Origin: a bacterium
GTDB lineage: Bacteria; Patescibacteriota; Minisyncoccia; Phycocordibacterales; JAGLPS01
DNA length: 64,000 bases
Direction: 5' to 3'
Assembly: GCA_030690305.1 (NCBI GenBank)
Contig: JAUYHB010000027.1
Coordinates: 15,670 to 79,669, forward strand
Shown: in pieces, positions 33,306 through 64,000 of the stretch
How the letters are laid out: each line of letters starts with the position of its first letter
Position numbering within the stretch: the first letter of the stretch is position 1
Translations under genes and position numbers: made by a program
Notes under the pieces: generated by a model
The model's input: the letters and a program-made list of their open reading frames with translations, nothing else
The model's database searches: none
What the model was told of the DNA's origin: nothing

Positions 33306-33311
33306 TAATAC

Positions 33312-34082: not shown

Positions 34083-34084
34083 AT

Positions 34085-34789: not shown

Positions 34790-34843
34790 GCCATTCTAAA
34801 ATGGCTTGTTTTCTAATACAATTTACCTAATTCTCCAAGAGCT

Positions 34844-35596: not shown

Positions 35597-35623
35597 GTTA
35601 TAATGAAAGGAATAATAATTTAA

Positions 35624-37186
35624 ATGGAAAATTTGATTGTACCAATTTTATATATCGTGGTGGCAGTTAATGTTATTCTCGCTTTTGTTATTTTCTCTCG
35701 AGGTCTTAAGAATTTAAAAAATCTTCTTTTTGCACTGATTGCTCTTACGACAGCAATATGGAGCGTTGCTATTATAGGTTTTTTTTCACCAGAATATCGA
35801 AGTTTTTTTGAGTGGATACGTCTAACCCACATCTCCGCTCTTTTAATTGCATTTGTGTTTTTTCATTTTTCGTTAGTTTTTCCTCAAAAAGTCTACAGAA
35901 GTTCATTGATAGCTTATTTATTCAGCATACCCTGCTTGGTTGCTTTATACTTTTTGTTTTTTACAAATCTGATAGTGAGTAACAGTGGTACAGGTGTCGC
36001 ATACGGCATTGAGGGTGGTTATATATTTTATGGCTTACTTTTGACATTCTACTTTTTCTCTGGTTATTTTTTCTTAGACGTCCAGTATAAACGCGCAAAA
36101 ACCGAAGAACAAAAAGGTCAAGTGAAGTATGTTTTTATTGGTTCCTTACTTACTTCTGCACTAGCCATAGTACCTGATTTAATTTTCCCTTTTTTTAAAA
36201 TTTTTGATTATACATGGTTAGGCCCGATATTCACCTTATTTTTAGTCGTGTCAATCTTTATTGCCATGGTTAGATTCCAGCTTTTCAATATTAGAATCAT
36301 TTTAACTGAGCTTTTTACAGGAGTAATTATCATTGTAATGATGATAGATTTATTCCTTTCAAGCTCTACCTTCGACCTATTAGTAAAATCAGGGATATTG
36401 GTATTAATTACATTTTTTGGTTTCTTATTAATAAAAAGTGTTTATAGGGAGGTTGAACAGAGAGAACATATTGAAAAACTGGCGGGGGAGCTTGAGGAGG
36501 CCAACAGACGCCAGGAGAGCCTTCTGCACTTCATAGGGCATGAAATCAAGGGATACTTCACCAAGAGCCACTGGGCGCTTTCCTCAATGATTGACGGAGA
36601 CTACGGAGAAATTGCTCCTGATTTAAAGATGCTTACCACCCAGGCCCTAGACGACACCAGGCAGGGCATTGATATGGTTGATGGTATTTTAAAGGCTGGT
36701 AATTTTAAAAAAGGGACAGTGAGTTTCAACATGAAGCCTTTCGATTTCAAGGGCGAGCTTAACAATGTTATTGGGATGCTTAAGCCTAATATTGAGACGA
36801 AAAAACTGGCCCTCCAACTTAATATTGACGAAAACCAGGATTATACGCTAAATGGCGACGGAGAGCAGATAAGCAAGCACGTCCTAAGAAATCTTATTGA
36901 TAACGCGATTAAATACACGCCTTCCGGAACCATTACAATCAGCCTTTCAAAGAAAGACAGCAAAATTCTTTTCTCTGTTAAAGATTCTGGGGTAGGAATT
37001 AAAGAAGAAGATAGAAAATTGCTGTTTACCGAAGGTGGACGAGGCAAGGATTCGGTAAAAATAAACGTCCACAGCACCGGCTACGGCCTCTTTATCGCAA
37101 AACAAATTGTAGACGCCCACAAAGGGCGCATTTGGGCTGATTCTACCGGCCCCAATCAGGGCTCCACTTTCTCTATAGAGATTTAA
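35624..37186 (+). CDS. sensor histidine kinase with an N-terminal 7-TM-like membrane domain; no adjacent response regulator
   Basis: About 7 hydrophobic helices (aa 1-280), HisKA H-box LHFIGHEIKGY, HATPase_c N/G boxes (LIDNAIKYT, VKDSGVGI, GTGYGLFIAKQIV...GSTFSIEI). Confidence 0.85.
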   Translation: MENLIVPILYIVVAVNVILAFVIFSRGLKNLKNLLFALIALTTAIWSVAIIGFFSPEYRSFFEWIRLTHISALLIAFVFFHFSLVFPQKVYRSSLIAYLFSIPCLVALYFLFFTNLIVSNSGTGVAYGIEGGYIFYGLLLTFYFFSGYFFLDVQYKRAKTEEQKGQVKYVFIGSLLTSALAIVPDLIFPFFKIFDYTWLGPIFTLFLVVSIFIAMVRFQLFNIRIILTELFTGVIIIVMMIDLFLSSSTFDLLVKSGILVLITFFGFLLIKSVYREVEQREHIEKLAGELEEANRRQESLLHFIGHEIKGYFTKSHWALSSMIDGDYGEIAPDLKMLTTQALDDTRQGIDMVDGILKAGNFKKGTVSFNMKPFDFKGELNNVIGMLKPNIETKKLALQLNIDENQDYTLNGDGEQISKHVLRNLIDNAIKYTPSGTITISLSKKDSKILFSVKDSGVGIKEEDRKLLFTEGGRGKDSVKINVHSTGYGLFIAKQIVDAHKGRIWADSTGPNQGSTFSIEI

Positions 37187-37202
37187 CCTGAAGTGGTTTT
37201 TC

Positions 37203-37231
37203 TTGACAAAGCAAGAAAAAGATTATATTAT
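37203..37231 (+). promoter_or_regulatory. near-consensus sigma-70 promoter for the rSAM-peptide operon, followed by a palindrome
   Basis: TTGACA - 17 nt - TATTAT; downstream GTCTTTG-ACA-AAAGAC inverted repeat (37245-37260) and AAAGGAGG RBS before ATG 37295. Confidence 0.6.
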
Positions 37232-37294
37232 ATGAGGAAGTTGGTCTTTGACAAAAGACTTTTGAATCTCTAGACAGAAAGGAGGATAGATGAC

Positions 37295-38350
37295 ATGAGT
37301 TCATTCCAAGTGAAAATTGTTGGTGATTTCTGTAACATCCGTTGTACATATTGCAGAAACCGTGACTTTGATCAAGATACGAATGTTTTGATGTCTGTGG
37401 CCAATCTAGAAAAACTTTTTGTTTTTCTAGATTCGTTACCACAAGCACGAATTCGTGTGAATTGGCACGGGGGCGAGCCATTGCTGGCAGGAAAAAAGTT
37501 TTTCCATCATATCTTGAGACTGGAAAACCAATATAAGCAAAAAATATGGATGAATGCTGTTCAGACAAATGCCATGTTGATTGATGATGATTGGGCTAAA
37601 CTTTTCCATGATAACCACTTTGATATCGGAGTAAGTATTGATGGAAGTGAACAAACGCATAACAGTGACAGAATAAATGTTGCTGGACGTGGAACATATA
37701 AGGAAGCGATGCGTGGTGTGGAAGCTCTTCGTCATAATAGCATTCATCCCGGCGTTATCTGTACTGTTACTAAAAAGACTGTCAGATACGCAAAAGAGAT
37801 GCTTCTTGATCTAGTGGATGCTGGGTTTAAAAGCATTGCTTTCAATGCTTTCTATAACACAGCGTCAGATTGTGATGGTGATACGTACGGACTAACAGAC
37901 ACAGAATGGCTGGCGTTTCTCATAGAAATATTTGAAACGTGGCTCGTACTTAATGATCCCACAATTCGTGTTCGCGAGTTGGATAGCATGCTTGCATGGA
38001 CCAAATCAAAAAGTGCTAATTCTTGCGTGTATAAAGGTACCTGTTATCAGTGGTTCGCTATCCATTACACTGGCGACATTTATCCTTGTGAAAGGCTGGG
38101 TAAATCTACCCATTTTGGAAGTATTGACTCCCTGAGAACTTTTCAGGACTTAGTGAATACTCCTGTTTTCCTTAATTGGAAAGAGTCAATTGGCCAACTT
38201 CCTCAAAGGTGTCGCACTTGCAGTTTGCAGTCATTGTGTCATAATGGTTGCGTTAGCCATCGGAAAGCAGATGAAGAGGGGGTGCCTCTTTACAGGTATT
38301 GTGAAAGTAGGCTCGGTTTCTATGATTACATCAAGGAAAGACTTAAATGA
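37295..38350 (+). CDS. radical SAM enzyme with a C-terminal SPASM domain (peptide-maturase type)
   Basis: CNIRCTYC (CX3CX2C) radical-SAM cluster motif. C-terminal auxiliary-cluster cysteines CVYKGTC...YPCE...CRTCSLQSLCHNGC are typical of SPASM (anSME/PqqE/MftC/AlbA-like) enzymes. Confidence 0.85.
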   Translation: MSSFQVKIVGDFCNIRCTYCRNRDFDQDTNVLMSVANLEKLFVFLDSLPQARIRVNWHGGEPLLAGKKFFHHILRLENQYKQKIWMNAVQTNAMLIDDDWAKLFHDNHFDIGVSIDGSEQTHNSDRINVAGRGTYKEAMRGVEALRHNSIHPGVICTVTKKTVRYAKEMLLDLVDAGFKSIAFNAFYNTASDCDGDTYGLTDTEWLAFLIEIFETWLVLNDPTIRVRELDSMLAWTKSKSANSCVYKGTCYQWFAIHYTGDIYPCERLGKSTHFGSIDSLRTFQDLVNTPVFLNWKESIGQLPQRCRTCSLQSLCHNGCVSHRKADEEGVPLYRYCESRLGFYDYIKERLK

Positions 38351-38365
38351 AAGGGGGTAAGGACC

Positions 38366-38551
38366 ATGTCACGTAAGAGTAGTTCTTTAGTTAATGAACG
38401 GCAGTCATCGCTATCTGGAAATCTCGCGCTTCAAGGTTCATTTAGCCGGATTGAGGATGGTAGTCGTTTTTCATCAAAAATACCGGAAGTCACGAATTAC
38501 GATGACTATCAGTATTCCGATTGCGACTACGATGACAGTGGAAAAAACTGA
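38366..38551 (+). CDS. putative RiPP precursor peptide (61 aa) with a Tyr/Asp-rich C-terminal core
   Basis: ATG 15 nt after the rSAM stop with AAAGGGGGT RBS. Sequence MSRKSSSLVNERQSSLSGNLALQGSFSRIEDGSRFSSKIPEVTNYDDYQYSDCDYDDSGKN. A strong terminator follows. Confidence 0.55.
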   Translation: MSRKSSSLVNERQSSLSGNLALQGSFSRIEDGSRFSSKIPEVTNYDDYQYSDCDYDDSGKN

Positions 38552-38574
38552 CACGAAGTAAGTTTTTAGTTAGC

Positions 38575-38610
38575 CAAGAGCGGGTTTGCAAAAACCCGCT
38601 CTTTTTTTTA
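38575..38610 (+). terminator. strong rho-independent terminator ending the rSAM-peptide operon
   Basis: GAGCGGGTTT-gca-AAACCCGCTC hairpin followed by TTTTTTTT. Confidence 0.75.
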
Positions 38611-38623
38611 ATATGAATACATT

Positions 38624-39409
38624 GTGAATAAAGATTTGTTAATGTCTTATGATCAGTACTCGAAAATTAAGCATGAAACTCCATATTTTTACATTGCCAA
38701 ATCAACAAAACAATCAATCTACTATTTTGGTTCCAGTCATTCCCATGATCCCAATCATCCGCAATTTGAATTATTAAAAGCGAAATGGAACGAATTTCTT
38801 GATGAAACTAAGGGACTGAAAACAGTAGTTCTTGTAGAAGCACATGAAATGCCAGAGCCAGAAGCTACACTGGAAAAAGAAATTATTAAACATGGTGAGT
38901 CAGGTGCGGGAGCCTATCTAGCGTATAAAAATAAGGCGCTGCTTATCTTTGGAGAACCTCAAAACGATAAAATAATTGTCCATCTGCTTCAATATTTTTC
39001 TAAAGAAGAGATTCTTTTTTGGTATGAATGCCAAGCTATAAAATTTTGGCAGCAACACAAAAAGGGAAGAAGCATACATGAATTTCTTTCAAATCATACT
39101 GAGAAATATCGTAAATTATTTAAATGGCCGGATTTGGTTATATCTTTAGAACTTGTTAATTCGATATATAAAAAATTATTTAATCAAGAGTTGAATATTG
39201 ATGACGAAGAATTATTCTCTCAAATTACCACTCCAATAACTGTTTTATCAAGAATTAATGAATTGTCCAGAAGCCAATCTATCTACAGAAATGAGCAGAT
39301 ATTGGTGCAAATAGAAAAATATTGGAAAGAGGGAAGTAATATTTTTGTTATCTATGGTGCTGGTCATGCGGTTATGCAGGAATCCGCCATCCGTAGTTTA
39401 GTTGGCTAG
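38624..39409 (+). CDS. TraB/GumN (Tiki-like) family protein, putative metalloprotease
   Basis: N-terminal ...IYYFGSSHSHDPNHP... and C-terminal ...FVIYGAGHAVMQESAIRSLVG match the two conserved GxxH blocks of TraB/GumN/Tiki proteins. GTG start; very AT-rich. Confidence 0.55.
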   Translation: MNKDLLMSYDQYSKIKHETPYFYIAKSTKQSIYYFGSSHSHDPNHPQFELLKAKWNEFLDETKGLKTVVLVEAHEMPEPEATLEKEIIKHGESGAGAYLAYKNKALLIFGEPQNDKIIVHLLQYFSKEEILFWYECQAIKFWQQHKKGRSIHEFLSNHTEKYRKLFKWPDLVISLELVNSIYKKLFNQELNIDDEELFSQITTPITVLSRINELSRSQSIYRNEQILVQIEKYWKEGSNIFVIYGAGHAVMQESAIRSLVG

Positions 39410-39432
39410 ACAATTCTTAAGGAATATATTTA

Positions 39433-39903
39433 ATGATACTACGACAAAGAGTAGCTGCGATTGTGGTTAAAGAAGATACGGTGCTTCTAATGCATCGTAT
39501 TAATGATGGAAAGGAATATTATTCTTTTCCTGGTGGTGGCAAGGAAGAAAATGAAAGTCTAGAAACAGGAGCGCTTCGAGAACTTTCTGAAGAAACGACA
39601 GTTGATGCAATAATTGACCGTTTGGTGTATAAGGTTATATGGGATAGCGGTGATGAGAACTACTTCTATCTTTGTAATTACATTTCAGGAGAACCAAAAC
39701 TAAGAGAGGATGCCGAAGAGCTAAAAGAGATGGCTGACGGAAAACAGGCGTATAAGCCGGAATGGGTTTATATTTCCGATTTACCCAACACCCTTTTATA
39801 TCAGTTAGAAATCAGAGATTTACTTATAAAAGACTTAAAAAATGGCTTTCTCGAACATCCTCAAGAACTCTTTATAAAAGTTGAAGAAAGACGTCGGATA
39901 TAA
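39433..39903 (+). CDS. Nudix hydrolase
   Basis: Nudix box GGGKEENESLETGALRELSEETTV. Confidence 0.8.
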   Translation: MILRQRVAAIVVKEDTVLLMHRINDGKEYYSFPGGGKEENESLETGALRELSEETTVDAIIDRLVYKVIWDSGDENYFYLCNYISGEPKLREDAEELKEMADGKQAYKPEWVYISDLPNTLLYQLEIRDLLIKDLKNGFLEHPQELFIKVEERRRI

Positions 39904-39908
39904 ATTAA

Positions 39909-40664
39909 ATGAAAGAAAATACTTCATGGGGAAATGTTGCGGATTGGTATGATACGCACCTTGAACAGGGCGGGGATACGTATCAGCGCAAAGTAATATT
40001 GCCGAATTTGCTTCGGGTGCTTGATTTGAAAGCGGGGGAAAGCGTGCTTGATTTAGCCTGCGGGCAGGGATTTTTCTCCCGTGAATTCGCAAATGCCGGT
40101 GCCAAGGTCATTGGGACCGACATTTCAAAGGAACTTATTGGGTACGCACAAGAACATTCTCCCAAAGAAATTACTTTTCATGTTTCTCCCGCCGACAATC
40201 TTTCTTTCGCTAAAGATGCTGAATTTGATGTGGTTACGATTATTCTTGCAATTCAAAATATTGAAAATATTTCGGGAGTTTTTTCTGAAGTAAAACGTGT
40301 TCTTTCTCCGCAAGGCGGGCTAATCATGGTGCTCAACCACCCGGCATTTAGAATCCCGAAGCAATCGGAATGGGGATGGGACGAGGAAAAGCAAATTCAG
40401 TACCGCAGAATCGACCGCTATCTTTCTCCTCAAAAAATTTCCATTGAAATGCATCCGGGGGAAGAAAAAGGGGAGCAAACGATTTCTTACCACCGTTCCT
40501 TACAGGACTTTTTCAAAGCATTGTCCAAAAACGGTTTTGCAATATCCAAACTTGAAGAATGGATTTCCCACAGAGAAAGCCAGGAAGGCCCGCGTCAGAA
40601 AGCGGAAGACACCGCCCGCAAAGAAATCCCGCTATTTCTGATGCTTGAGGCTAAAAAGATGTAG
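39909..40664 (+). CDS. class I SAM-dependent methyltransferase
   Basis: VLDLACGQGFFSREFA motif I, acidic motif II (GTDIS), IMVLNHPAF. Confidence 0.75.
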   Translation: MKENTSWGNVADWYDTHLEQGGDTYQRKVILPNLLRVLDLKAGESVLDLACGQGFFSREFANAGAKVIGTDISKELIGYAQEHSPKEITFHVSPADNLSFAKDAEFDVVTIILAIQNIENISGVFSEVKRVLSPQGGLIMVLNHPAFRIPKQSEWGWDEEKQIQYRRIDRYLSPQKISIEMHPGEEKGEQTISYHRSLQDFFKALSKNGFAISKLEEWISHRESQEGPRQKAEDTARKEIPLFLMLEAKKM

Positions 40665-41285
40665 TTGGTATTCTCAAACAAAAAATCTTGTATGTCACAC
40701 AATGTATCGTGGGAAAAATATATTAAGAAAACCGAGTCAAACCCACCCCGAGTTTTACTTACTGAAGCAGTAGAACATGTGCGGAATAAAGATGAGGCTC
40801 TTGATTTGGGAGCTGGAGCAATGAACGATTCAAAATACCTTTTATCAGTTGGTTTTAAACATGTAACGGCAATTGACAGTGATATCGCTGCCCAAGAAAA
40901 GGCAAAAGACATCTTAGGAGATAAGTTTTCTTTTTTCTTAAGTAGCTTTGAAAATTTTTCTTTTCCTCATGAGACGTATGACTTGATAAATGCTCAGTAC
41001 GCTTTACCGTATAATTCTCCAAAAACATTTAACAGTTTAATAAAGAACATTACTCTCTCACTTAAACCTAAAGGTGTGTTTGCAGGTCAACTATTTGGTA
41101 ATAAAGATTCTTGGAATACTGAAAACAGTGGTAAAACCTTTCATACAAAAGAAGAGGCTGAAAAGTTATTTTTAGATTTTAAGATAATCAAATTTATAGA
41201 GGAAGAAAATGATAAACCGAGTGTTCTTGGAAAACCAAAACATCAACACCTGTTTAATTTTATAGTTTCAAAACCAGAAAAATAA
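40665..41285 (+). CDS. class I SAM-dependent methyltransferase (small, TehB/TPMT-like size)
   Basis: ALDLGAGAMNDSKYL motif I and AIDSD motif II. Begins immediately after the previous stop (TTG at 40665 or ATG at 40692); AT-rich. Confidence 0.65.
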   Translation: MVFSNKKSCMSHNVSWEKYIKKTESNPPRVLLTEAVEHVRNKDEALDLGAGAMNDSKYLLSVGFKHVTAIDSDIAAQEKAKDILGDKFSFFLSSFENFSFPHETYDLINAQYALPYNSPKTFNSLIKNITLSLKPKGVFAGQLFGNKDSWNTENSGKTFHTKEEAEKLFLDFKIIKFIEEENDKPSVLGKPKHQHLFNFIVSKPEK

Positions 41286-54221: not shown

Positions 54222-55265
54222 ATGTCAAAAGTTTTTGTGACTGGAGGAACAGGCTTTGTCGGCTCGGCCCTCGTGCGGGCACTTGTTGCGCACGGGGATG
54301 AAGTAACACTTCTTGTTCAAAAAAACGACTCCCAAGCCAAAAGTGTTGACGGTCTTGCGATAAAAATAGTTGAGGGAGATATTTTAAACCTCGACAGTTT
54401 TAAAGTTGCGGCGCAGGGGACTGAAGTCTTCTATCATGCCGCTTTTTTGTACACACTTCCGGCTATAGGGATTAGAAAAGAACCCCGAATGGACGCAGTC
54501 AATCTACAAGGCACAAAAAATGCCGTGGAAGTGGCTCAAAGTGTGGGAGTAAAAAAGTTTGTATTTACAAGCTCCGTATACACCATAGGACAGTTGGGAA
54601 AACACATTACCGCCGACGAGAAAGACCATATCCCTCCGGGAAAAGAAATTGGCTATTACGGGCGAACAAAAAGAATTGCGGAAGATTATGTTCTTACAAA
54701 GGCTCGCGCGGAGGGATTTCCCGCGGTAGTCGTCAATCCATCGGCAATTTTCGGACCGGGGGATTCGCGCCCCACACCGTCCGGGGAAATTGTCATTAAA
54801 TTCCTTCAAAAGAAATATCCGGGGTATTTTGACGCGCTTGTCGCCGTTGCCGATGTTGATGATGTCGCACAAGGTCATATCCTTGCCGCGGAACGCGGAA
54901 AAATAGGAGAACGATATATTTTATGTAATGAGAAAAATTACACGGAAAAAGAATTATTTGAAATATTTGAAAAAGTATCAGGTATTCCTGCTCCCAAAAC
55001 AAAATTTCCCGTATGGTTCATGAACATATTCGTCCAAGCCGACGAATGGATCAGAAGATTCTTCCCGAAGCACAAGGTGCTCATATACTGGGACCATTTC
55101 CGTCTTGCCAAGGATTTTGTCGCATTTAGCAACAAAAAGGCCGTTATGGAGCTTGGCTGGACTACAAAACCATTCGAAGAAACGGCCCGGAAGGCGGTTC
55201 TGTGGTACAAAGCACACGGTATGTGGCATAAAGCCGGCATATCAGATTCGGGGGACATGAAATAA
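54222..55265 (+). CDS. NAD-dependent epimerase/dehydratase (extended SDR)
   Basis: VTGGTGFVGSALV Rossmann motif, YxxxK (YGRTKRIAE). Confidence 0.85.
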   Translation: MSKVFVTGGTGFVGSALVRALVAHGDEVTLLVQKNDSQAKSVDGLAIKIVEGDILNLDSFKVAAQGTEVFYHAAFLYTLPAIGIRKEPRMDAVNLQGTKNAVEVAQSVGVKKFVFTSSVYTIGQLGKHITADEKDHIPPGKEIGYYGRTKRIAEDYVLTKARAEGFPAVVVNPSAIFGPGDSRPTPSGEIVIKFLQKKYPGYFDALVAVADVDDVAQGHILAAERGKIGERYILCNEKNYTEKELFEIFEKVSGIPAPKTKFPVWFMNIFVQADEWIRRFFPKHKVLIYWDHFRLAKDFVAFSNKKAVMELGWTTKPFEETARKAVLWYKAHGMWHKAGISDSGDMK

Positions 55266-55449
55266 TAAAAATAAATTTTTCGTCCCGAATAAAAAATTTT
55301 ATCTCGATAGAGGAGTGGAGGTTCGATAATACCGCCATAGAGTCGTATACAAAAAGAAGACTTAAAGGGGGTGTCAAAAGAGGTCTCCTTATTTGCCCCT
55401 ATGGTAACGTCGCAAAAGATATATTGTGCGACGTTCCAGAGTTATCCAC

Positions 55450-55476
55450 AGGGGCTTTACAAAGCCCCTTTTCTTC
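55450..55476 (+). terminator. rho-independent terminator after the epimerase gene
   Basis: GGGGCTTT-aca-AAGCCCC hairpin followed by TTTTCTTC. Confidence 0.65.
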
Positions 55477-55596
55477 AGTATTCCCTAACCCAGCCGAATT
55501 CGATGTGAATCTAAACTGTAAATGTTCTTGATGACTTCACTATACAGTTATCATCGAGAGATGCAAGCCAAGCCCTGTGGATATTAATGAACAATG

Positions 55597-56622
55597 CTAC
55601 GCAACGGCAATAACGCCTTCACCCGGCATGACCCCCCTTCCCCACTCGTTGTCCTCAAAAATTTTTCTATACGTTTCTTCGATCTCAAGTCTGCTTAATT
55701 TCGTATAGTGAGCAATCGTATGAGGCGTAGAATGTCCCACCAACAATGCAATGATGGCATCAGGCACTCCTTTCTTCGCTAATCGATGTATGAATCCGTG
55801 CCGGAAAGAATGAGGACAAATTATCCTTTCTATCCCGGCCAATCGTGTCGTTTCCTTAACCATTCTCTCCACTGAGCGAGAAGTAATTCCATCTCTAAAA
55901 TTTCCCTTCAGCCCAATAAATAGGGCGCTAGTCAGTTTTGCACTTTGGCAGAATTGGGTTCGCGCTATCATATATTCCTTTACTACACGAGCAGTCTCAT
56001 CTGTCCAGAACACTCTTCGTTTGCGGGTAGTCTTTTCTGTTTTGATCACTGCGGTTCCTTCCTCCATATCCTCGATGTTCAAAGCACATAACTCTCCTAC
56101 TCTCATTCCAGTGTCGTGCAGAAGACGGATAATACACTGATTCCTGAGATCAAAAATTCCATACTCCTGCAAGGCCGCTAACATCTGTTGATATTCATCT
56201 TCCGTAATCGCATTATGCGAATTGGCGATAGCAGTTGGAACCTTCACCAGATATAGAGGAAGAGATAATTTGCCTTGTTCCTTCCAGAATCGAAGATAGT
56301 TGTAAATGATGTTCATGCCATACTCTACATTCTTCGGTGAGTATACCGCTTGGATCATCCTCATGAACATCGTGATATCAGATAATTCAAGTTTCTCTGG
56401 ATCCTTTCCTACAAAACTCTGAAACCGCTCAACCCATATTCTGTACGCCTTAAAGGCTGTCCTTGAATGAGTCTCTTTCCACATTAAGTATTCTTCTACC
56501 GGCCCATGCGTGGTTGTGATAATCTTCTGGCCTAATCTCCGTCGGATGTTTATCAGCCTATCTAAAGCTACGTAATCTTTTTCTATTTGCATAAAGTTTT
56601 CAAATAAGGCGGGTAATAGCAC
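55597..56622 (-). CDS. tyrosine-type site-specific recombinase/integrase
   Basis: C-terminal catalytic residues in ...HSFRHGFIHRLAKKG...LVGHS...AHYTKLS (R-H-R-Y tetrad context); N-terminal SAM-like core-binding domain; GTG start. Confidence 0.88.
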   Translation of the reverse strand: MLLPALFENFMQIEKDYVALDRLINIRRRLGQKIITTTHGPVEEYLMWKETHSRTAFKAYRIWVERFQSFVGKDPEKLELSDITMFMRMIQAVYSPKNVEYGMNIIYNYLRFWKEQGKLSLPLYLVKVPTAIANSHNAITEDEYQQMLAALQEYGIFDLRNQCIIRLLHDTGMRVGELCALNIEDMEEGTAVIKTEKTTRKRRVFWTDETARVVKEYMIARTQFCQSAKLTSALFIGLKGNFRDGITSRSVERMVKETTRLAGIERIICPHSFRHGFIHRLAKKGVPDAIIALLVGHSTPHTIAHYTKLSRLEIEETYRKIFEDNEWGRGVMPGEGVIAVA

Positions 56623-57076
56623 ATTAACCCTCGGTGAGTGAACATCAGGTACTGCTTTTAGGCACCCTTAATTAAGGTTGACTGTGCTCCCACTGCTAAT
56701 TAAAGCAGCGGGAATTATTACCACCTTAGAACTTCGGTTTACCGGCCTCTTGATCTTAGGTAGGCAAAACAAAACCATCCACCTCTACGTTCAATTTACC
56801 GGCCTTGGCGAAAGGTGGCTAGTATACTTGAATTTGTGCCACTCTTCCTGCCCGTTTCCTCATTGGCAGTTGCCCTGTTATCCACAGGTAAGTTAGGGGT
56901 CACAACGTAAAGGCGGCGATCTTGCCAAACGCCATACTACTGTCTTCTCGAATCTTGTCAAAGAACTCAGCATGCCTTACCAATCATATACAAATACCTC
57001 TACATACATGGTATGTAGGACTAACTTGTGGCCTCAATCGGCCAACTATCTCTTAACTGAGGACTGGTTCACTAGT

Positions 57077-57219
57077 TCCCCGCGTGTCGTGCTCGCGCCC
57101 GACTTGCTCTTCTTCCTGACGGCTATCGGGTTTGTCTCCGCACTATCGTTTGAGTCTGCACCAAGAAGCGCAAGTCGGCCGCTCGATTGAGCGTCGACAC
57201 GCGGGGAAAAGCTCAAACG
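57077..57219. repeat. large nested imperfect inverted repeat (candidate oriT/attP-like structured site)
   Basis: CCCCGCGTGTCG...GCGCCCGACTTGC (57077-57106) pairs with GCAAGTCGGCCGC...CGACACGCGGGG (57167-57205). Inner ATCGTTTGAG (57144-57153) pairs with CTCAAACGAT (57210-57219). Confidence 0.55.
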
Positions 57220-57402
57220 ATTAACCACTACGTGCTCACTACTCATTGCCTGCTGGCAATCAATTTTCCATAAGTTATAATTACCCCGGACTCATTGCAC
57301 ATTCCAGTAAGCCGCTCAGGCTTCAAAATCAGCTCCCACTACCCTTTCGGCTCGTTTCTCATACCGTATGTCGGCAAGGGACTGGAAGCTGGCTTTGCAA
57401 CC

Positions 57403-58683
57403 ATGAGTAACGAAATCCTTGCAGGCAAAAGACTTTCTTGGGGAGGGACGGAAACGCTCTTTGGAATCAAGACGGAAGACAGCCGGAGACATGTGTATAT
57501 CGTCGGAAAGACGGGTTCGGGTAAGAGTACGCTCTTACATAATTTTCTCGTTCAACACATCGAAGCCGGCCACGGCATAGGCCTCATCGATCCTCACGGA
57601 GACCTCGCGCATGATCTTCTCGATTACATCCCCTCGTGGAGAACGCGTGATGTCGTCTATCTCAATCCAGCCGACCTCAAATATCCCGTAGGAATTAATC
57701 TCTTTGCCGATATTCCTTTCGACAGACGCCATCAGGCCGCTTCGGGGATTGTCAGTTCGTTTAAAAGTATCTGGCGGGACTCATGGGGGCCCCGTCTTGA
57801 ATATATCCTCTATAACGCAGTCGCCGCTCTGCTTGACTGCGAGAATACGACCATCTTGGGAATTCCAAGACTTCTCACGGATTCTTCATACCGGAAATGG
57901 GTAGTAAAACAGGTGCGTGATCCATTTGTGAAGGCTTTCTGGGTCAATGAGTATGAAAACTACGATAACCGCTTTATGCGGGAGGCTATCGCTCCAATTC
58001 AAAATAAAATCGGCCAGTTTCTTACGACTCCCGCGATTCGCAACATCTTGGGCCAAGTAAAAAGCACCGTTGATTTCCGGTTTATGATCGACAATGAACG
58101 GATTTTCATAGCCAATCTCGCCAAAGGATCTCTTGGCGAAGATAAAGCAAACCTCTTGGGCTCGCTTTTAGTCACTCAATTACAGCTTGCGGTCATGTCC
58201 CGCACGGATATCCCCGAGGAAGAACGAAAAGACTATTTTCTGGTGATTGACGAATTCCAGTCGCTGACGACGGACAGTTTCGCTTCCATTCTCTCCGAAG
58301 CCCGCAAGTACCGCCTCTCCCTCATCCTCAGTCATCAGTACCTTGACCAAATCACACCTGAAGTAAGGCAGGCGATTCTCGGCAACGTCGGCACCATCAT
58401 TTCTTTCTGCGTAGGCAATACCGACGCCGAAATATTGGAAAAGGAATTAGGTAATTCTCATTCAGCCGAGCAGTTCACCGATCTAAAAAGATATGAGATA
58501 ATTGTTAAGCTGCTTGCAGATGGCGAGTACCTTGAGCCGTTCCGGGCAAGAACGCTTTCGAAGATGGGAATTTCGAAATACCATCGAGAAAGGATAGTGG
58601 AACAATCAAGACAACGATATTCCTTAAAAAGAGAAATCGTTGAAAATAAAATCGCCAGATGGCTGCATAGCGCATCAGCATAA
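57403..58683 (+). CDS. P-loop ATPase of the TraD/VirD4-coupling-protein / FtsK-HerA (AAA-like, DUF87-type) superfamily
   Basis: Walker A VGKTGSGKST, IDPHGDL (DPxGD-like), Walker B LVIDEFQSL. No N-terminal TM. Start set to ATG 57403 (MSNEILAGK...) rather than the ORF-track 57295. Confidence 0.7.
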   Translation: MSNEILAGKRLSWGGTETLFGIKTEDSRRHVYIVGKTGSGKSTLLHNFLVQHIEAGHGIGLIDPHGDLAHDLLDYIPSWRTRDVVYLNPADLKYPVGINLFADIPFDRRHQAASGIVSSFKSIWRDSWGPRLEYILYNAVAALLDCENTTILGIPRLLTDSSYRKWVVKQVRDPFVKAFWVNEYENYDNRFMREAIAPIQNKIGQFLTTPAIRNILGQVKSTVDFRFMIDNERIFIANLAKGSLGEDKANLLGSLLVTQLQLAVMSRTDIPEEERKDYFLVIDEFQSLTTDSFASILSEARKYRLSLILSHQYLDQITPEVRQAILGNVGTIISFCVGNTDAEILEKELGNSHSAEQFTDLKRYEIIVKLLADGEYLEPFRARTLSKMGISKYHRERIVEQSRQRYSLKREIVENKIARWLHSASA

Positions 58684-58723
58684 TTTTGTCACAACAAACC
58701 TGCCGAAAACGGGGCGGCGGGTT

Positions 58724-59677
58724 ATGAAATATATGGTATTTATAAGAACCCCGAGGTTCAATCGTTCCGCTAAAACTCAACATATCCGCGTCACTCCACG
58801 CGATCTCCACATCATCCACCACGTCTTCAGATATCGCCTTCTAAGCTCTAAGCAAATTGCGACTCTTACAGAAGGCAGTCATCAAAACTTATTAAGACGA
58901 CTCAAGCTGTTGTACAACAACCGCTATCTCGACCGGCCCATAAGCCAGCTCGACTACTACCGCGCCGGCGGTTCTCATCCGATGATTTACGCTCTCGGCA
59001 ATCGCGGCGCGGATTTGATCCAAGCTAAATTCGGCATTCCAAGGACGGAGATCGATTGGACGGCAAAAAACCGATCCGTCAAACGGCTTTTTATTCAACA
59101 CACCTTATCGGTCTCTGAAATTCTCGTCCGGTTGAAATCCAGATGCCGGGATAGTGATGTGGAATTTCTGGAAAAAGAAAAGGCCCTGCGGAATCTTGCC
59201 GGTACTTCACCAGCACACAAAAAACTTGGCTGGAATGTATCCGTCCCTTTTAATAAGGACGTATTTTCAATTGGAGTGATCCCCGACTACCTATTCGGCC
59301 TGCGCCCCCAAAACGGCACCGATACGGTTTACTTCTTCCTCGAAGTCGATAGAGGCACCATGCCTGTCATGCGGAAGAATTTGAATCAGACTTCATTTTA
59401 TCGAAAACTCCTTGCTTACCATGAGACATGGAGACAAGAGCTTCACACTTCCCTCTTCGGATTGAAAAGATTTCGCGTGCTCGTTGTCGTAAACAGCAAA
59501 GAGCGACTGAGTCATCTCATTGCGGCGAACAAACTGCTTAATGACGGCAAGGGATCAGGTATCTTTCTCTTTGCGAGCATGTCCGATGTTGATTCCTGCG
59601 AAAATATTTTAAATTTGCCCTTTATTGATGGACACGGTGATTCGACTTCCTCTTTACTAACGGACATAGGAAGCTGA
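58724..59677 (+). CDS. replication-relaxation family protein
   Basis: N-terminal winged-helix (...RVTPRDLHIIHHVFRYRLLSSKQIATL...) and C-terminal ...YFFLEVDRGTM... block match the Replic_Relax family of integrative and plasmid elements. Start at internal ATG 58724. Confidence 0.6.
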   Translation: MKYMVFIRTPRFNRSAKTQHIRVTPRDLHIIHHVFRYRLLSSKQIATLTEGSHQNLLRRLKLLYNNRYLDRPISQLDYYRAGGSHPMIYALGNRGADLIQAKFGIPRTEIDWTAKNRSVKRLFIQHTLSVSEILVRLKSRCRDSDVEFLEKEKALRNLAGTSPAHKKLGWNVSVPFNKDVFSIGVIPDYLFGLRPQNGTDTVYFFLEVDRGTMPVMRKNLNQTSFYRKLLAYHETWRQELHTSLFGLKRFRVLVVVNSKERLSHLIAANKLLNDGKGSGIFLFASMSDVDSCENILNLPFIDGHGDSTSSLLTDIGS

Positions 59678-59702
59678 TATTCTCGCATCTTCAGAAAGTT
59701 AC

Positions 59703-59740
59703 AAAAGCCCTGCCATACAGCAGGGCTTTTCTTTCTTCTT
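59703..59740 (+). terminator. rho-independent terminator
   Basis: AAAGCCCTGC-catacag-GCAGGGCTTTT hairpin followed by CTTTCTTCTT. Confidence 0.65.
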
Positions 59741-59838
59741 GTTATCCACACCCCCTCCCTTCTGAACTTCAGTCCCCGGCGTATACTTACGATTGGAACT
59801 GTTCATTTTGAGAAACTCAAATCCAAAGGAGGCGATCT

Positions 59839-60849
59839 ATGTCTGAATCGAATAACGGTTTTGTCGATTTCAAAGCCATTAAACAGTCAGTCTCAATGCT
59901 TCAGGTTCTTGAGTATTACGGGCTCATGCAGAGTCTCAAAAGAAATGTAGATTCTCTGAGCGGTCCCTGCCCTCTTCACAGCGGGCACACAGAGGGACAG
60001 TTTAAAGTCAGCGTTTCCAAAAACTGCTGGAATTGCTTCGGTAAATGCAAATCCGGCGGGAATATTTTGGACTTCGTGAGCCGTAAGGAAAACGTCGGAA
60101 TCCGCGAGGCAGCGATTCTCATTGTGAAATGGTTTGATCTATCGGCAGACACCGCACCGGATAAACAAACAGAAAAAACAAAAGATAAAAACCCGCAAAG
60201 CCAGAAAGACGCCGAAGAATCGGCCGCACCAGAAAGCCAGTCTAAGGAAAATAAACCTCTTGGATTCTCCCTTAAACATCTCGATCCCAATCATACATAT
60301 CTTACTGAAAGAGGATTGTCCCCAGAGACAATCATTGCGTTCGGCTTAGGCCACTGCAAAAAAGGCATCTTGACCGGAAGAATAGCCATCCCAGTCCACA
60401 ACTTGGATGGAGGGCTTGTGGCGTATATCGGTCGCTGGCCCGGACAACCGCCGGAAGGAAAAGAAAAATATAAATTTCCCGAAGGTTTTAAAAAATCGCT
60501 GGAAATATTCAATGTTCACCGTGCGATAAACGAATCTTCAACGGAACCCCTCATCGTGGTACAAGGCGTATTTGACTGCATGAAAATTTGGCAGGAGGGC
60601 TTCCATCGAGTAGTTGCCATTATGGGAAACGCGGTCTCGGAAGAACAGTCAACACTGCTTCTTCAAGCCGTTTCTCCTCAAGGCCGCATCGTCCTTATGT
60701 TCAATGAGGATGAAGCCGCGCAACAGGGCTGTCAAAACGCTCTCATGCGCCTGTCGTCTGCCTGCTATGTCAGAACGATCAAACTCCCTCAAGAAGGACT
60801 GCAATCAGAACATCCGTCTCAAAAAAGATTCATTGAGCTGCTTAAATAA
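59839..60849 (+). CDS. DNA primase-like protein (CHC2 zinc finger plus Toprim)
   Basis: CPLHSGHTEGQFKVS...CWNCFGKCKSGGNILDFV is the DnaG/P4-type CHC2 zinc-binding motif. Toprim-like ...LIVVQGVFDCMKIWQEG...VVAIMGNA... downstream. AAAGGAGG RBS. Confidence 0.75.
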   Translation: MSESNNGFVDFKAIKQSVSMLQVLEYYGLMQSLKRNVDSLSGPCPLHSGHTEGQFKVSVSKNCWNCFGKCKSGGNILDFVSRKENVGIREAAILIVKWFDLSADTAPDKQTEKTKDKNPQSQKDAEESAAPESQSKENKPLGFSLKHLDPNHTYLTERGLSPETIIAFGLGHCKKGILTGRIAIPVHNLDGGLVAYIGRWPGQPPEGKEKYKFPEGFKKSLEIFNVHRAINESSTEPLIVVQGVFDCMKIWQEGFHRVVAIMGNAVSEEQSTLLLQAVSPQGRIVLMFNEDEAAQQGCQNALMRLSSACYVRTIKLPQEGLQSEHPSQKRFIELLK

Positions 60850-61025
60850 CTGTCGGGTCGGGAAGTTCGGGGGCATTCCGAACGGACGTGAAGGGATAAC
60901 CCTTTCATTCTGCCCGTTCCTGCTTGACGAAGCAGACTCGGGCTTTGTTCGTCGGCATGCGGGGGACCCCAAAACTTCCCGGCCCTAATAATTCTTCCGT
61001 CTTACAAAAAACGAAAGGAACGATC

Positions 61026-61289
61026 ATGGCCTACACGCCGGAACTGACTTATAAAGCGAGTTCTACGTTACGCAGGATCGCTTGGTCGCTGAACAAACCG
61101 ATGACCAAAACCATGGAATGGATCCTTACCGACTTAATCAAATTCATTCCTGCTCCCGCCATCTGCGAGGCGTGCAAAGACCAAACGAAATGCGAAACAT
61201 GTCCCTTTAACACGAACGGAAAACCGACAGGAGGCAACATGCCGCCGGATCTTCTAAAACAATCGGAGGAAATCTTATGCGAACGATAA
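61026..61289 (+). CDS. small Cys-rich (zinc-ribbon-like) protein, 87 aa
   Basis: Start at the internal ATG with AAAGGAA RBS; C-terminal CEACKDQTKCETCPF cluster. Confidence 0.5.
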   Translation: MAYTPELTYKASSTLRRIAWSLNKPMTKTMEWILTDLIKFIPAPAICEACKDQTKCETCPFNTNGKPTGGNMPPDLLKQSEEILCER

Positions 61290-61726
61290 AATGTTTTGAG
61301 AGAGATTTGGAGGCGGCTAATACAGCCATTGTCCGGGACACTTTTGGGAACCAAGCATTAATAAGTGCAATCTTCAATATATGGGAATCTCGGACAATGG
61401 GCAAAACAGATCGCGAGTTCGACAAACTCATGCGTAGAACAATGGGCAAGAAGATCTGGAGCCATATGACTCAGGAAGAAAAATTCACAGAGTTTAGAAC
61501 CAGTATTTTAAACGATCTGTGGATTAGTCTGAATGAAATCAGGGAAGGAAACAGAGTCGTGGTTGAATACTTTCTGGATCGCGCCCTTGACCCACTGGAT
61601 CCATTTGCTGGGGTCTATCAGGCGTTCTTGAGAGGACTCGGTGCTGAGATTCTTTATGAAGAAAAAGTTTTTAAAGGTATTCGTTTCCCAAAAGGGGCCG
61701 AAAAACAGACGATTGTTCTCGAATAA
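61277..61726 (+). CDS. hypothetical protein (149 aa)
   Basis: ATG overlapping the previous gene's end; no family recognised. Confidence 0.5.
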   Translation: MRTIKCFERDLEAANTAIVRDTFGNQALISAIFNIWESRTMGKTDREFDKLMRRTMGKKIWSHMTQEEKFTEFRTSILNDLWISLNEIREGNRVVVEYFLDRALDPLDPFAGVYQAFLRGLGAEILYEEKVFKGIRFPKGAEKQTIVLE

Positions 61727-61746
61727 ACCTTCAAAGGAGAAAAACC

Positions 61747-62010
61747 ATGAATATTACCGTCGAAAGAATTTATCGCCAGCCGGAAAGCAAATCACTTAAA
61801 GCCTTTGTTGATCTGTCGATTGACAATGTTTTGCTGATTAAAGGAATCCGTATCGTTCAAGGCCCGAAAGGACTCTTTGTATCCATGCCGCAAGGGCAAG
61901 GAAAAGACAAGCGCTGGTATGATTCCATCCGTTGTCTGGATCAAGAATTCAAGAAACGATTGGATGACGAAGTCATGTCCGCTTATACCAAAGAGATCGA
62001 TAACGAATAA
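61747..62010 (+). CDS. spoVG: SpoVG-family protein
   Basis: MNITVERIYRQPESKSLKAFVDLSIDNVLLIKGIRIVQGPKGLFVSMPQGQGKDKRWYDSIRCLDQEFKKRLDDEVMSAY aligns with the SpoVG consensus (M.VTDVR.....KA.ASI.+D+.FV+HDIRVI+G.NGLFVAMPS......+RDI.HPI....R..I..AV); AAAGGAGA RBS. Confidence 0.75.
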   Translation: MNITVERIYRQPESKSLKAFVDLSIDNVLLIKGIRIVQGPKGLFVSMPQGQGKDKRWYDSIRCLDQEFKKRLDDEVMSAYTKEIDNE

Positions 62011-62067
62011 GAATTTTCTGAAACCGTTGGCAAATACATTGTCCAAACCAGTAAAGGAGGTGATCGT

Positions 62068-62370
62068 ATGTACCCGGAAGTCAATGCGTTATCTAATACA
62101 AAACTGGCAAAGTTTCCCGTGGGACAAATAGTCTCCACTACAAACGCTTTGTCAAAGCTGACGCATCACGACATACTGATAGCATTAAGTCGTCATGTTA
62201 AAGGAGATTGGGGCGAAGTTTGCGAGGAAGACCGTCGAGAGAACGAACTGTCGCTGAAGGAAGGATACAGATTGCTTTCTGTTTATCAGGGAGCCGCCGG
62301 AACAAAATTCTGGATTATCACTGAATCCGACCGATCTGTCACAACAGTTTTACTTCCCGAGGATTATTGA
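62068..62370 (+). CDS. conserved small protein of mobile elements (100 aa), function unknown
   Basis: Strong TAAAGGAGGTGA RBS; ...GDWGEVCEEDRRENELSLKEGYRLLSVYQ....KFWIITESDRSVTTVLLPEDY is a pattern I recall from plasmid/ICE accessory proteins. Confidence 0.55.
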   Translation: MYPEVNALSNTKLAKFPVGQIVSTTNALSKLTHHDILIALSRHVKGDWGEVCEEDRRENELSLKEGYRLLSVYQGAAGTKFWIITESDRSVTTVLLPEDY

Positions 62371-62384
62371 GTTAAAACAAAACA

Positions 62385-62427
62385 CCTCTTCTTAAATTTG
62401 AAGAGGTGTTTTCTATTATGTGTAAAA
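62385..62427. terminator. bidirectional rho-independent terminator between convergent genes
   Basis: AACACCTCTTC-ttaaatttg-AAGAGGTGTT hairpin flanked by A-run and T-run. Confidence 0.65.
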
Positions 62428-62604
62428 ATCATTTGCTCTAAATAATCGTTTAATATGCCAAAAAGAACTTGGGCCCATTGAAATGAATCATATGATTGGG
62501 ATCGGCAATCCAAACTTCTGTTTCCCATATAACACTTGCCCCAACCTTCCCGTGCGCGTGTTAAAAACTTTTGCCGTCTTGAAAGATCGGCAAACTCCCT
62601 TTTT

Positions 62605-63909
62605 CTATTCTGCTGTCCGTCCGTATTTTTCGCGGCGTTTTCTAAAAGCTGTTTTCCCACCTTCTAATATATCCAATCCGTGTTCTCTTATACCTCGTTT
62701 TTCTAATGGTATTTTTGCTTTTTCGCTCACAAATGAGTTTTCAATAGCTCCACTTACATATGAAATACGGGATGGTTGTAAACTTGGGACAGCATCAAAA
62801 TTTGCGACAATGATCTGTTCCGCGTCAGTGTTCAATACCAAGTTAGGATTGTGAGTGATAACAATGACTTGGCGTCGGCGTTTAATTTCTCTAAAGTAAT
62901 CAACCAGCGAAGGGAATACTGATTTATTATCAAGATTTTCTTCGGGTTGGTCTATAACGAGCGGGACACTACCTTCTGTATCTAGCACCAAATACATGAG
63001 CAACAATACTACTCCCTTTTTGCCCGGTGAAAGCAACTCCAAACTCGTTCCTTGATATTTAATATTATAGGCAACTTTAAAATCGCTAGTGTCAAAAAAC
63101 CAATTAGAAAAATCTAATTTTTGTTTTCCTTTGAGTAATTGCGAGCGTATATCCAACTCTTTCCCATCCACATCCTTTTCAAAGCTATTGTAAAAAGTTT
63201 TTATTTCGCCAGATATATTTTCAACCTCACCAAGCTCAATAGATTCGGCAATACCTTTGATCTTCTTAAACAAGTTGTCATTGCCTCTATAATACTTACC
63301 CTTCCTCCCAAAATCTAAAACAGACTGCGCTTTGCGGAAGTATCCTTCCACATCTAATTCAATTCTCGCAAAAAATTCCATCTGATTTTCTTTTTCCTTT
63401 TTCTCTCTATCTTTTAGAGGGGCGTAAAGTTCTTCTAAAGACTTCTTTTCTTCTTTTAATAATTCAAAGTATTGTTTATAGGTTTCATCTCTTAATACTT
63501 CTTTTTTGGGCAGTTCCAATATTTTTACTGTTTCTATATCGGTTATATTTTTTTCAAGTTCCGTTGTCCTTGTTTTAATTTTCGCTATTTTACCGTCGTA
63601 TTCTTTTATAGCTTTGCGAGTAGATTCAACAATGCTTGAAATTGATTCAAGCTTTTTTATCCACTCCTCGGTATCACTCAAAGGCAAGTCTTTGACCAAT
63701 TCTTCTTTTAACTCGTCCAATTTTACTTCTTTATTTTCCGCCGTATCATTTTCCTCCTTGGTTTTGATAGCTCCTTTCAACTTGTTGATTTGCTCATTGA
63801 ACTTCGTTTTTTGCTCATCAAGAGCCGTGAGAAAATCCGGTGTTATAGAAAATTCTATCTTTTCGTAGATTAAACCGATATTTTTAAGATCGTCCTTAAT
63901 TTGCGACAA
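62605..63909 (-). CDS. SMC/RecF/SbcC-like ABC-type ATPase, C-terminal two-thirds (coiled coil plus signature, Walker B and H-loop); no Walker A head in this ORF
   Basis: LSPGKKGVVLLL (ABC signature-like), LVIDQPEENLD (Walker B/D-loop), VIVITHNP (H-loop), long coiled-coil N-terminal part. The ORF starts at TTG just after an in-frame stop, 90 nt from the window edge. Confidence 0.6.
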   Translation of the reverse strand: MSQIKDDLKNIGLIYEKIEFSITPDFLTALDEQKTKFNEQINKLKGAIKTKEENDTAENKEVKLDELKEELVKDLPLSDTEEWIKKLESISSIVESTRKAIKEYDGKIAKIKTRTTELEKNITDIETVKILELPKKEVLRDETYKQYFELLKEEKKSLEELYAPLKDREKKEKENQMEFFARIELDVEGYFRKAQSVLDFGRKGKYYRGNDNLFKKIKGIAESIELGEVENISGEIKTFYNSFEKDVDGKELDIRSQLLKGKQKLDFSNWFFDTSDFKVAYNIKYQGTSLELLSPGKKGVVLLLMYLVLDTEGSVPLVIDQPEENLDNKSVFPSLVDYFREIKRRRQVIVITHNPNLVLNTDAEQIIVANFDAVPSLQPSRISYVSGAIENSFVSEKAKIPLEKRGIREHGLDILEGGKTAFRKRREKYGRTAE

Positions 63910-64000
63910 TTGCTTGTCCGCGTATGTTTTAAGCGTTGAGGTTTTTGTCTTGATATTCTCAACGGTTAATAAGTGAGATTTAAGAATAGCAATTTTATTA

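Follow-up and report, generated by a model that had tools for sequence, protein, structure and literature searches.

Relaxases of the MOB_C type, such as TraX of pAD1 and MobC of CloDF13, are related to restriction endonucleases (PMC12857230, PMC6736028, PMC3424549) and combine an N-terminal winged helix with an acidic D-E-E metal-binding motif (PMC12857230, PMC6736028). The Pfam family Replic_Relax (PF13814) has been equated with MobC (Table 1 of PMC5357655), and mobilizable plasmids and integrative mobilizable elements (IMEs) that encode their own VirD4-type coupling protein also carry a MobC relaxase (PMC5704250). Here we describe a block of genes at the right-hand end of a 64,000-nt stretch of a bacterial contig (JAUYHB010000027.1; hereafter, the window). 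The block lies downstream of an epimerase gene and is probably a MOB_C-type IME that encodes a coupling ATPase, a relaxase, and a primase of its own and includes a candidate origin of transfer (oriT; Table 1).

In the enterococcal MOB_C modules (pAD1 TraX/TraW and pAM373 Orf8), as here, the Replic_Relax gene adjoins a gene for a TrwB/TraG-type ATPase in the same direction, and the relaxase joins a winged helix to a restriction-endonuclease-like domain with acidic catalytic residues (predicted in our case). The relaxase of pAM373, which is typed as MOBC, matches PF13814 at 27.1 bits. pAM373 also has a compound inverted repeat beside these genes. It is 142 bp long, as compared to 139 nt for the two-tier hairpin in the window, and its outer stem has 18 bp and its inner stem 25 bp. 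However, the repeat of pAM373 lies between the coupling-protein and Replic_Relax genes, whereas the hairpin in the window is upstream of the ATPase gene, and the ATPase of pAM373 has 737 aa, whereas ours has 426 aa and is soluble. The third acidic residue of the enterococcal motif is E and ours is D. Finally, our block is integrated, has its own recombinase, and does not include a type IV secretion system (T4SS), and the similarity of its relaxase to that of pAM373 is not significant.

CloDF13 (MobB and MobC) and the streptococcal IMEs (such as IME_SsalCCHSS3) resemble our locus in that they encode their own coupling protein and a MOB_C relaxase and rely on a borrowed mating channel, as our block would have to (PMC5704250). 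The streptococcal elements with VirD4 and MobC are integrated, as ours is. Unlike these systems, which come from another host phylum, our block has a Xer-like integrase with a palindromic site, an additional primase, and a module that includes a conserved protein of 100 aa (p100), and no similarity to the Mob region of CloDF13 was detectable in its record, which looks frameshifted. Judging from the protein sequences, the pairing of ATPase and relaxase in the window is the known VirD4-type plus MobC module.

The host genome is, by its DnaK sequence, that of a Parcubacteria-type member of the Patescibacteria (the candidate phyla radiation, or CPR). A protein named "Patescibacteria group bacterium" matches this DnaK at 100% identity; after it, the closest relatives with a name (~75-80% identity) are from Pacebacteria, Parcubacteria, or Zambryskibacteria. 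For this host group, the relevant part of a 2025 survey reports 109 relaxases in 103 genomes, with MOB_C as the commonest type (58), and 39 relaxase genes near a coupling-protein gene; it also reports a widespread chromosomal T4SS of the monoderm type without relaxases (PMC12102498). By these counts, pairs of MOB_C and coupling-protein genes in CPR are already on record, and the window locus, which has the same gene pair in the same host group, is probably of that class (PMC12102498). An earlier note on this DNA, which was made from the sequence alone, had remarked that such elements are rarely described in CPR-like genomes. In view of those counts, this is only partly right. The relevant part of the survey counts genes (PMC12102498), and the boundaries, the integrase, the att-like site, the hairpin, and the relatives in other phyla come from the present analysis.

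We located related loci (L005-L009 and further ones) by a homologue search with the Replic_Relax protein of the window. A core of 7.0 kb (55405-62423) recurs at 95% DNA identity in three contigs (L005, L006, and L007) whose flanks are unlike those of the window on both sides. The homology to these contigs is confined to 55405-61230 and 61706-62423, and their Replic_Relax proteins are 93% identical to ours. The same gene order is found in other genomic contexts at L008 (78-82% DNA identity, with an 82% identical relaxase) and at L009, which is on a contig labelled Ca. Brocadia (with a 65% identical relaxase). The GC content of the core is 44-46% in all four contexts, and that of the flanks is 36-44%. 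Copies that are 95% identical in unrelated contexts imply recent movement, so we take the core to be an integrated, discrete block that moves horizontally.

An integrated mobile block is what the earlier note had proposed, and besides the differing flanks and the distinct GC content, it is borne out by a relative that has other genes after the epimerase gene (L093, discussed below). The genes that it named are all present, with families found by profile search for those that have one. (Families of the element genes were assigned at E <= 0.01 for Pfam and NCBIfam and at E <= 0.001 for PHROGs, and the gene starts are those of independent gene calls on identical public contigs.) All eight core open reading frames (ORFs) are intact. 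However, the left boundary, which had been put at 55477, moves to 55405/55406, where the homology begins, and the hairpin that had been taken for the terminator of the epimerase gene (55450-55469) falls within sequence that is common to the window and L005, so it belongs to the element.

A module of hairpin, small ATPase, relaxase, primase, and p100 is common in metagenome-assembled genomes of Verrucomicrobiota and Acidobacteriota. In a verrucomicrobial relative (L076), the module adjoins genes for two proteins that conjugative elements typically carry, ArdC and RadC, and a gene for a coupling-protein-like protein of 1048 aa. The compact form with an integrase and SpoVG was found only in the window, L005, L006, and L008; L009 has a form without SpoVG, and SpoVG was in none of the genome loci L009-L088. 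The module is essentially absent from 72,556 sequenced plasmids (there was one weak tblastn match to the relaxase), and no relative of the relaxase was found in IMG/VR. Given this absence from IMG/VR and the lack of structural genes, we rejected the idea that the block is a phage or a satellite.

The Replic_Relax protein is a candidate MOB_C relaxase and a putative nickase at the origin of transfer. It scores 83.9 bits against PF13814, for which the cut-off is 25.3 bits. P184-D185, E204, and D206 are invariant among 20 homologues, and in an AlphaFold2 model (mean predicted local distance difference test score, or pLDDT, of 84.6) D185, E204, and D206 sit at the start and end of adjacent beta-strands. 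The motif is thus D-E-D and not D-E-E, and it was matched to the residues of TraX through a non-significant alignment. The model has an N-terminal winged helix and a C-terminal domain whose best, though weak, Foldseek matches were the type II endonucleases PfoI and MunI; winged-helix proteins were also among the top matches of the model.

As to the ATPase, its match to TrwB_AAD_bind spans residues 60-388 and exceeds the cut-off of 20.5 bits, and T4SS-DNA_transf also scores above its cut-off (27.6 versus 20.1 bits). Its best relative of solved structure is TrwB of R388 (3.5e-6). The FtsK_SpoIIIE model reaches 19.9 bits, below the cut-off of 24 bits, and covers the P-loop region only (residues 44-86). 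The Walker A motif is at residue 35 and the Walker B motif is at residue 279.

The integrase and ATPase genes are separated by a spacer of 810 bp (56593-57402) that is 78-98% identical in L005, L008, and L009 and holds the candidate oriT hairpin. This hairpin has a 12-bp outer stem and an inner stem of 20 positions (18 of them paired), with a small side hairpin; its apical loops are conserved. Its DNA fold has z = -4.68 relative to shuffled sequences, so the structured inverted-repeat locus that had been noticed here is real. Part of it (57071-57185) is detectable by blastn in loci from Verrucomicrobiota and Acidobacteriota whose proteins are only ~45% identical. A covariance model that we built for the hairpin (R1, with matches counted at E <= 0.01) scores the window hairpin at 113.6 bits and matched 46 related loci on the gene strand, mostly in these two phyla. 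In 40 of the 46, the hairpin precedes the small ATPase gene by 190-600 nt. Across 35 aligned matches, 93.7% of cells pair (versus 74.1% if shuffled), both partners have changed in 30 of the 44 pairs, and covariation scores 0.439 (versus at most 0.10 with the partners slid); the alignment was fitted to the model and so leans towards structure, but the margin is large all the same.

RNA helices normally tolerate G.U pairs. The two long stems of the hairpin have 1177 Watson-Crick pairs, 9 G.T, and 10 A.C across the alignment, and that G.T is as rare as A.C points to a DNA hairpin. (The apical 4-bp helix does have many U.G pairs.) Because there was no Rfam family match and no excess of G.U in the long stems, we rejected the reading of the hairpin as an RNA. 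Instead, we read 57071-57209 as the oriT because it has the same two-tier design as the inverted repeat of pAM373, which is beside the coupling-protein and relaxase genes.

The left end of the element appears to be a recombination site. The homology to L005, L006, and L007 starts at the imperfect palindrome of Table 1, which is the only such palindrome that we found in the window. In L005, the right arm is identical to that of the window and the left arm and spacer differ (AACGTCTCTAAA-GTCTTA), and L008 has a similar palindromic site at the same relative position. On the host side, a relative with a 90% identical epimerase (L094) has an intergenic region after the epimerase gene that is ~79% identical to that of the window. 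It includes 27 identical bases (CCCTATGGTAACGTCGCAAAAGATATA) that span the left arm and the spacer, and the right arm differs (TACTACGACGA). Because the host half is on the left, where it is kept in L094, and the element half is on the right, the palindrome fits a left attachment site (attL) of the type B-O-P', and it would look like an attL that was made by a Xer-like integrase. The integrase is Xer-like by sequence: its best NCBIfam matches were to XerA (145 bits), XerD (116 bits), and XerC (114 bits), all below the equivalog cut-offs.

A relative with an 85% identical epimerase (L093) has the same order of MraY-FtsW-MurG-GluRS-M23-GpmA-epimerase as the window. The epimerase gene is followed by two other small ORFs, and there is no homology to 55208-64000 of the window. 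(The L093 and L094 contigs both end within 0.5 kb of the insertion site.) For the empty site that the earlier note had suggested looking for, the other genes in L093 and the host-type half in L094 bear on the left side; the right attachment site (attR) was not found. A scan of metagenomes for an empty site with the epimerase gave only a 24%-identical match, and an exact 40-mer (63950-63989) had no match in genome and metagenome contigs.

Between 55405 and 64000 there is an integrase, a relaxase, a coupling ATPase, and a candidate oriT, and there is no gene of the VirB4, VirB6, or VirB8 type; the right end is beyond the window, as had been expected, in that we found no right end within it. This is the gene content of an IME, and we propose that it would work as follows. 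For excision, the recombinase would bring about recombination between the left site and a right site beyond the window, which we expect to have the form AACGTCGCACAA-N6-(TACTACGACG-like arm). The MOB_C relaxase, with its winged helix and its restriction-endonuclease-like domain, would nick at the hairpin, which would serve as the origin of transfer. The element's coupling ATPase would pass the single strand on to a type IV secretion channel encoded elsewhere; a likely candidate is the chromosomal T4SS without a relaxase that many Patescibacteria have. In the recipient, the primase would prime the complementary strand, and the recombinase would integrate the circle at a site that resembles AACGTCnCnAAA. 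In this scheme, excision, the right end, nicking at the hairpin, and the use of a host T4SS are inferred.

Several observations weigh against this proposal. All of the Foldseek matches for the relaxase model are weak: none reached E <= 0.001, and the endonucleases have E ~5e-3. An hhalign comparison to the pAM373 relaxase (a TraX homologue) gave E = 0.33, which is not significant, and the relaxase profile did not match the CloDF13 record that looks frameshifted. As these comparisons to the prototypes are not significant, the case for membership in MOB_C is built on the match to the Pfam profile, the fold prediction, the motif, and the neighboring genes and hairpin. Canonical coupling proteins have an N-terminal membrane anchor. 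The N-terminus of our ATPase begins 34 residues before Walker A, and no transmembrane segment was found (the highest Kyte-Doolittle hydropathy over 19 residues is 1.09). The ATPase also matches models for HerA- and mad8-type ATPases.

Other points against it concern the ends of the element. In 55406-64000, a search for attR (with direct repeats, 9-mers of the arms with at most one mismatch, and ACGTC...GACGT cores) returned the left site only, and searches with 9-mers and shared 11-mers found no second site in L005 (within 7.5 kb rightward), L008, or L009. With no attR, the right end, the total size, and the competence for excision are unproven. Also, the spacer is GATATA in the window and GTCTTA in L005, which is unusual for a simple tyrosine-recombinase overlap. 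Finally, no T4SS gene was seen among the large ORFs of the window that were profiled, which are about a fifth of them.

The ATPase and the Replic_Relax protein can also be read as parts of an ICE (integrative and conjugative element) of the actinomycete type, as the earlier note had done. An FtsK/TraB-like translocase would then move double-stranded DNA and the Replic_Relax protein would be a replication initiator. Actinomycete ICEs (AICEs) have an FtsK-like TraB, which acts on double-stranded DNA, and a Rep protein. Like our block, an AICE such as pSAM2 is small, with an integrase at one end, a single translocase-like (P-loop) ATPase, and no T4SS, and the solubility of our ATPase, its weak match to FtsK_SpoIIIE, and the "replication-relaxation" protein would fit as well. 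We consider this highly improbable because TrwB_AAD_bind exceeds its cut-off, the FtsK model does not reach its own, and TrwB is the best solved relative, and because PF13814 is a relaxase family and a compound hairpin like that of pAM373 lies beside the genes. Furthermore, no AICE genes (Rep of the RepSA/RepAM type, NUDIX, or Spd) were found in the block with Pfam, NCBIfam, or PHROGs (four genes belong to other families and three small ORFs do not have any), and most of the family comes from Verrucomicrobiota and Acidobacteriota, with ArdC and RadC alongside it (in L076). It is also doubtful that the hairpin has some role other than oriT, as an RNA leader of the ATPase operon or as an initiation or promoter element of the ssi/Frpo type that is used after entry. 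Such roles would account for the fixed orientation and distance relative to the ATPase gene, the conserved unpaired loops and three-way shape, the U.G-rich apical helix, and the presence of a primase gene in the module. However, the long stems are unlike typical RNA helices, the best promoter match is downstream of the hairpin, no Rfam family matched, and the analogy to pAM373 favors an origin of transfer. A role as an ssi or promoter element would be compatible with a function in transfer.

The missing attR and the absence of visible T4SS genes would both be expected if the block were a remnant, fixed or in decay, that can no longer be excised or transferred and is perhaps retained for the sake of its primase, SpoVG, or defence genes. 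The variation of the palindrome's spacer between copies, and the right edge of the core, where there is only a terminator, could be seen in the same way. A remnant seems unlikely given the intact ORFs and the 95%-identical copies in unrelated contexts. Moreover, the spacer at 56593-57402 is conserved in L005, L008, and L009 and the hairpin is kept across phyla, and this conservation indicates purifying selection on signals of the transfer type. (If the element is inactive, then it is simply one more integrated island.) Conversely, the block could be the left part of a larger, self-transmissible ICE, with the T4SS genes and attR beyond 64000. The right end is indeed outside the window, many relatives have a second coupling-protein-like gene (~1050 aa) about 5 kb downstream, L005 has a gene for a 1030-aa coupling protein nearby, and L076 has ArdC and RadC as well. 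Yet the 5-8 kb to the right in L005, L008, and L009 hold only genes for restriction-modification, PolB, TIR, and SRAP proteins, on the opposite strand, and the flanks differ among the copies whose cores are 95% identical. No VirB4 was found in the flanks that were inspected (L005, L006, L008, L009, and L076; other loci were screened with the window's proteins only). We therefore think that a larger ICE is improbable.

The IME that we propose matters because, according to the relevant part of the survey, Patescibacteria commonly have a T4SS but nearly never a relaxase, so that whether they conjugate is an open question (PMC12102498). The locus is a compact set (a candidate oriT, a MOB_C relaxase, a coupling ATPase, a primase, an integrase, and a precise left junction) and offers a concrete test of conjugation. 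The two-tier hairpin is conserved with compensatory changes across at least three phyla, and its covariance model is also a handle for searching for this lineage of elements. As the core is found in a contig labelled Ca. Brocadia and the hairpin module is common in Verrucomicrobiota and Acidobacteriota, one could go further and suppose that the chromosomal T4SS of Patescibacteria, which has no relaxase, naturally takes this element as a substrate, that the element supplies the missing oriT, relaxase, and coupling ATPase, and that it moves across phyla between epibionts and larger bacteria. We view this extension as quite unlikely.

Table 1. Features of the element and its right flank (positions in the window).
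Feature	Position	Strand	Basis
12-6-12 imperfect palindrome AACGTCGCAAAA-GATATA-TTGTGCGACGTT, candidate attL core	55406-55435		left edge of homology
Terminator-like hairpin inside the left end, overlapping a GTTATCCACA box (55442-55450)	55450-55469	+	terminator scan
Tyrosine recombinase (integrase), 331 aa	55597-56592	-	Phage_integrase 8.6e-31
Two TTTACCGGCC copies (56738-56747 and 56795-56804)	56738-56804	+	repeat family D10
GTTATCCACA box (DnaA-box consensus) in a CCTGT...ACAGG palindrome	56878-56886	+	consensus match
Two-tier DNA hairpin, 139 nt, candidate oriT	57071-57209	+	fold, covariance model
Sigma-70-like promoter match CTGGCA-17-TATAAT between hairpin and ATPase gene	57253-57281	+	consensus match only
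P-loop ATPase, 426 aa, TrwB/VirD4-type, soluble	57403-58683	+	TrwB_AAD_bind 48.8 bits
Replic_Relax protein, 314 aa, MOB_C-type relaxase candidate	58733-59677	+	PF13814 2.1e-23
Terminator-like hairpin (59703-59730), then GTTATCCACACCCCCTCCCTTC box (59742-59750)	59703-59750	+	after relaxase gene
DnaG-like primase, CHC2 zinc finger and Toprim, 336 aa	59839-60849	+	Pfam; TIGR01391 9.3e-40, below cut-off
Cys-rich protein, 87 aa, C-x2-C-x6-C-x2-C	61026-61289	+	no family found
149-aa protein	61277-61726	+	no family found
SpoVG homologue, 87 aa	61747-62010	+	PF04026 1.3e-18
Conserved 100-aa protein (p100)	62068-62370	+	no named family in Pfam, NCBIfam, PHROG, or PADLOC
Terminator hairpin (62379-62412) and end of conserved core (62423)	62379-62423	+	terminator scan; homology edge
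TrlF-family AAA-like ATPase, C-terminal half, defence-like	62605-64000, frame open at window end	-	NF045780 1.4e-78

Several smaller signals of the non-coding parts are also conserved. The two copies of TTTACCGGCC lie 57 bp apart. Read by eye, each seems to sit in the loop of a short stem. They are kept in L005, L008, and L009 and are nearly absent from distant loci (there is one match with 1 mismatch, in L027). They could possibly be protein-binding repeats, maybe for the relaxase or the integrase. The TATAAT hexamer of the promoter match is kept in L008 and L009. The GTTATCCACACCCCCTCCCTTC box is ~90 nt upstream of the primase gene, and both the box and its C-rich tail are kept in L005, L008, and L009.

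The element also holds three perfect matches to the DnaA-box consensus (TTATCCACA, each after G) and one ATATCCACA; these DnaA-type boxes are at 55442-55450 (+), 55576-55584 (-), 56878-56886 (+), and 59742-59750 (+). The whole window has 4 perfect boxes versus 0.32 expected, and their positions are kept in L005, L008, and L009 (for the box at 56878-56886, with one mismatch in L008). Of the 22 perfect boxes in 80 related loci, 20 are on the same strand as the genes. The boxes may bind DnaA or a regulator of the element. We rejected the reading of these boxes as part of the chromosomal origin (oriC) because the cumulative GC skew rises across the host part. Also, up to 55265 the + strand carries every ORF of at least 150 aa that we took to be a gene, and the boxes move together with the element.

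Public contigs from the same strain (from Logan, and one of 18.6 kb from NCBI) stop at 55335 (L091), 57124 (L090), and 62581 (L089). The stop at 57124 is midway through the large hairpin. We considered the stops at 55335 and 62581 as att cores and rejected them, as they have no sequence in common.

In the right part of the core, the primase gene follows the relaxase gene in most related loci. In L008, two extra ORFs (363 aa and 167 aa, without a Pfam match) are inserted between the relaxase and primase genes (L008 11120-12795), which marks a second variable spot in the core. The other one is 61231-61705 (the end of the 87-aa ORF and the 149-aa ORF), which has no homology in L005, L006, or L007. 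These contigs carry ORFs of 73 aa and 81 aa in its place, with 90-95% identity on both sides, so by sequence this is a variable cassette that is swapped within the operon of small genes. Among the accessory genes of the module, p100 co-occurs most widely, and it comes after the primase gene in many related loci. Its family is very large, with 7382 cluster representatives at E <= 1e-3 (2677 at E <= 1e-10); a structure model from the single sequence (pLDDT 46.9) was too poor to use. The stem of the terminator at 62379-62412 covaries in L008, and no recombinase-type site was seen at the right edge of the core.

Beyond the core, the convergent gene that had been called an SMC-like ATPase is instead the C-terminal half of a TrlF-family protein. 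It also resembles the antiphage protein Ppl (5.6e-17; PADLOC Ppl 2e-14) and has a GC content of 36%. In all four contexts, the right flank consists of minus-strand genes of the accessory or defence type: this TrlF/Ppl-like ATPase in the window, restriction-modification in L005, a dCMP deaminase, a type IIG restriction-modification enzyme, and an SNF2/PLD protein in L008, and SRAP, PolB (a B-family DNA polymerase), and a TIR-domain protein in L009. These genes are most likely variable cargo, or they may be a neighboring island.

On the other side of the junction, the epimerase gene (54222-55265) has only three close relatives (80-90% identity), and the next-best named matches are proteins from Omnitrophota that are ~47% identical. 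Because of this pattern, the epimerase gene may itself be an acquisition.

Elsewhere in the window, 33000-41000 has a low GC content (35-39%, versus ~45% elsewhere) and includes a 7TM-type histidine kinase (35624-37186); this is possibly another acquired island. An ORF of 1444 aa (18380-22714) combines a Peptidase_S74 (endosialidase chaperone) domain with a bacterial Ig-like surface domain, a pairing that is better known in phage tail fibres. Finally, the window has a cluster of five tRNAs (Val, Pro, Ala, Pro, Ala; 1192-1852) and an AlaRS of just 581 aa (16515-18260).

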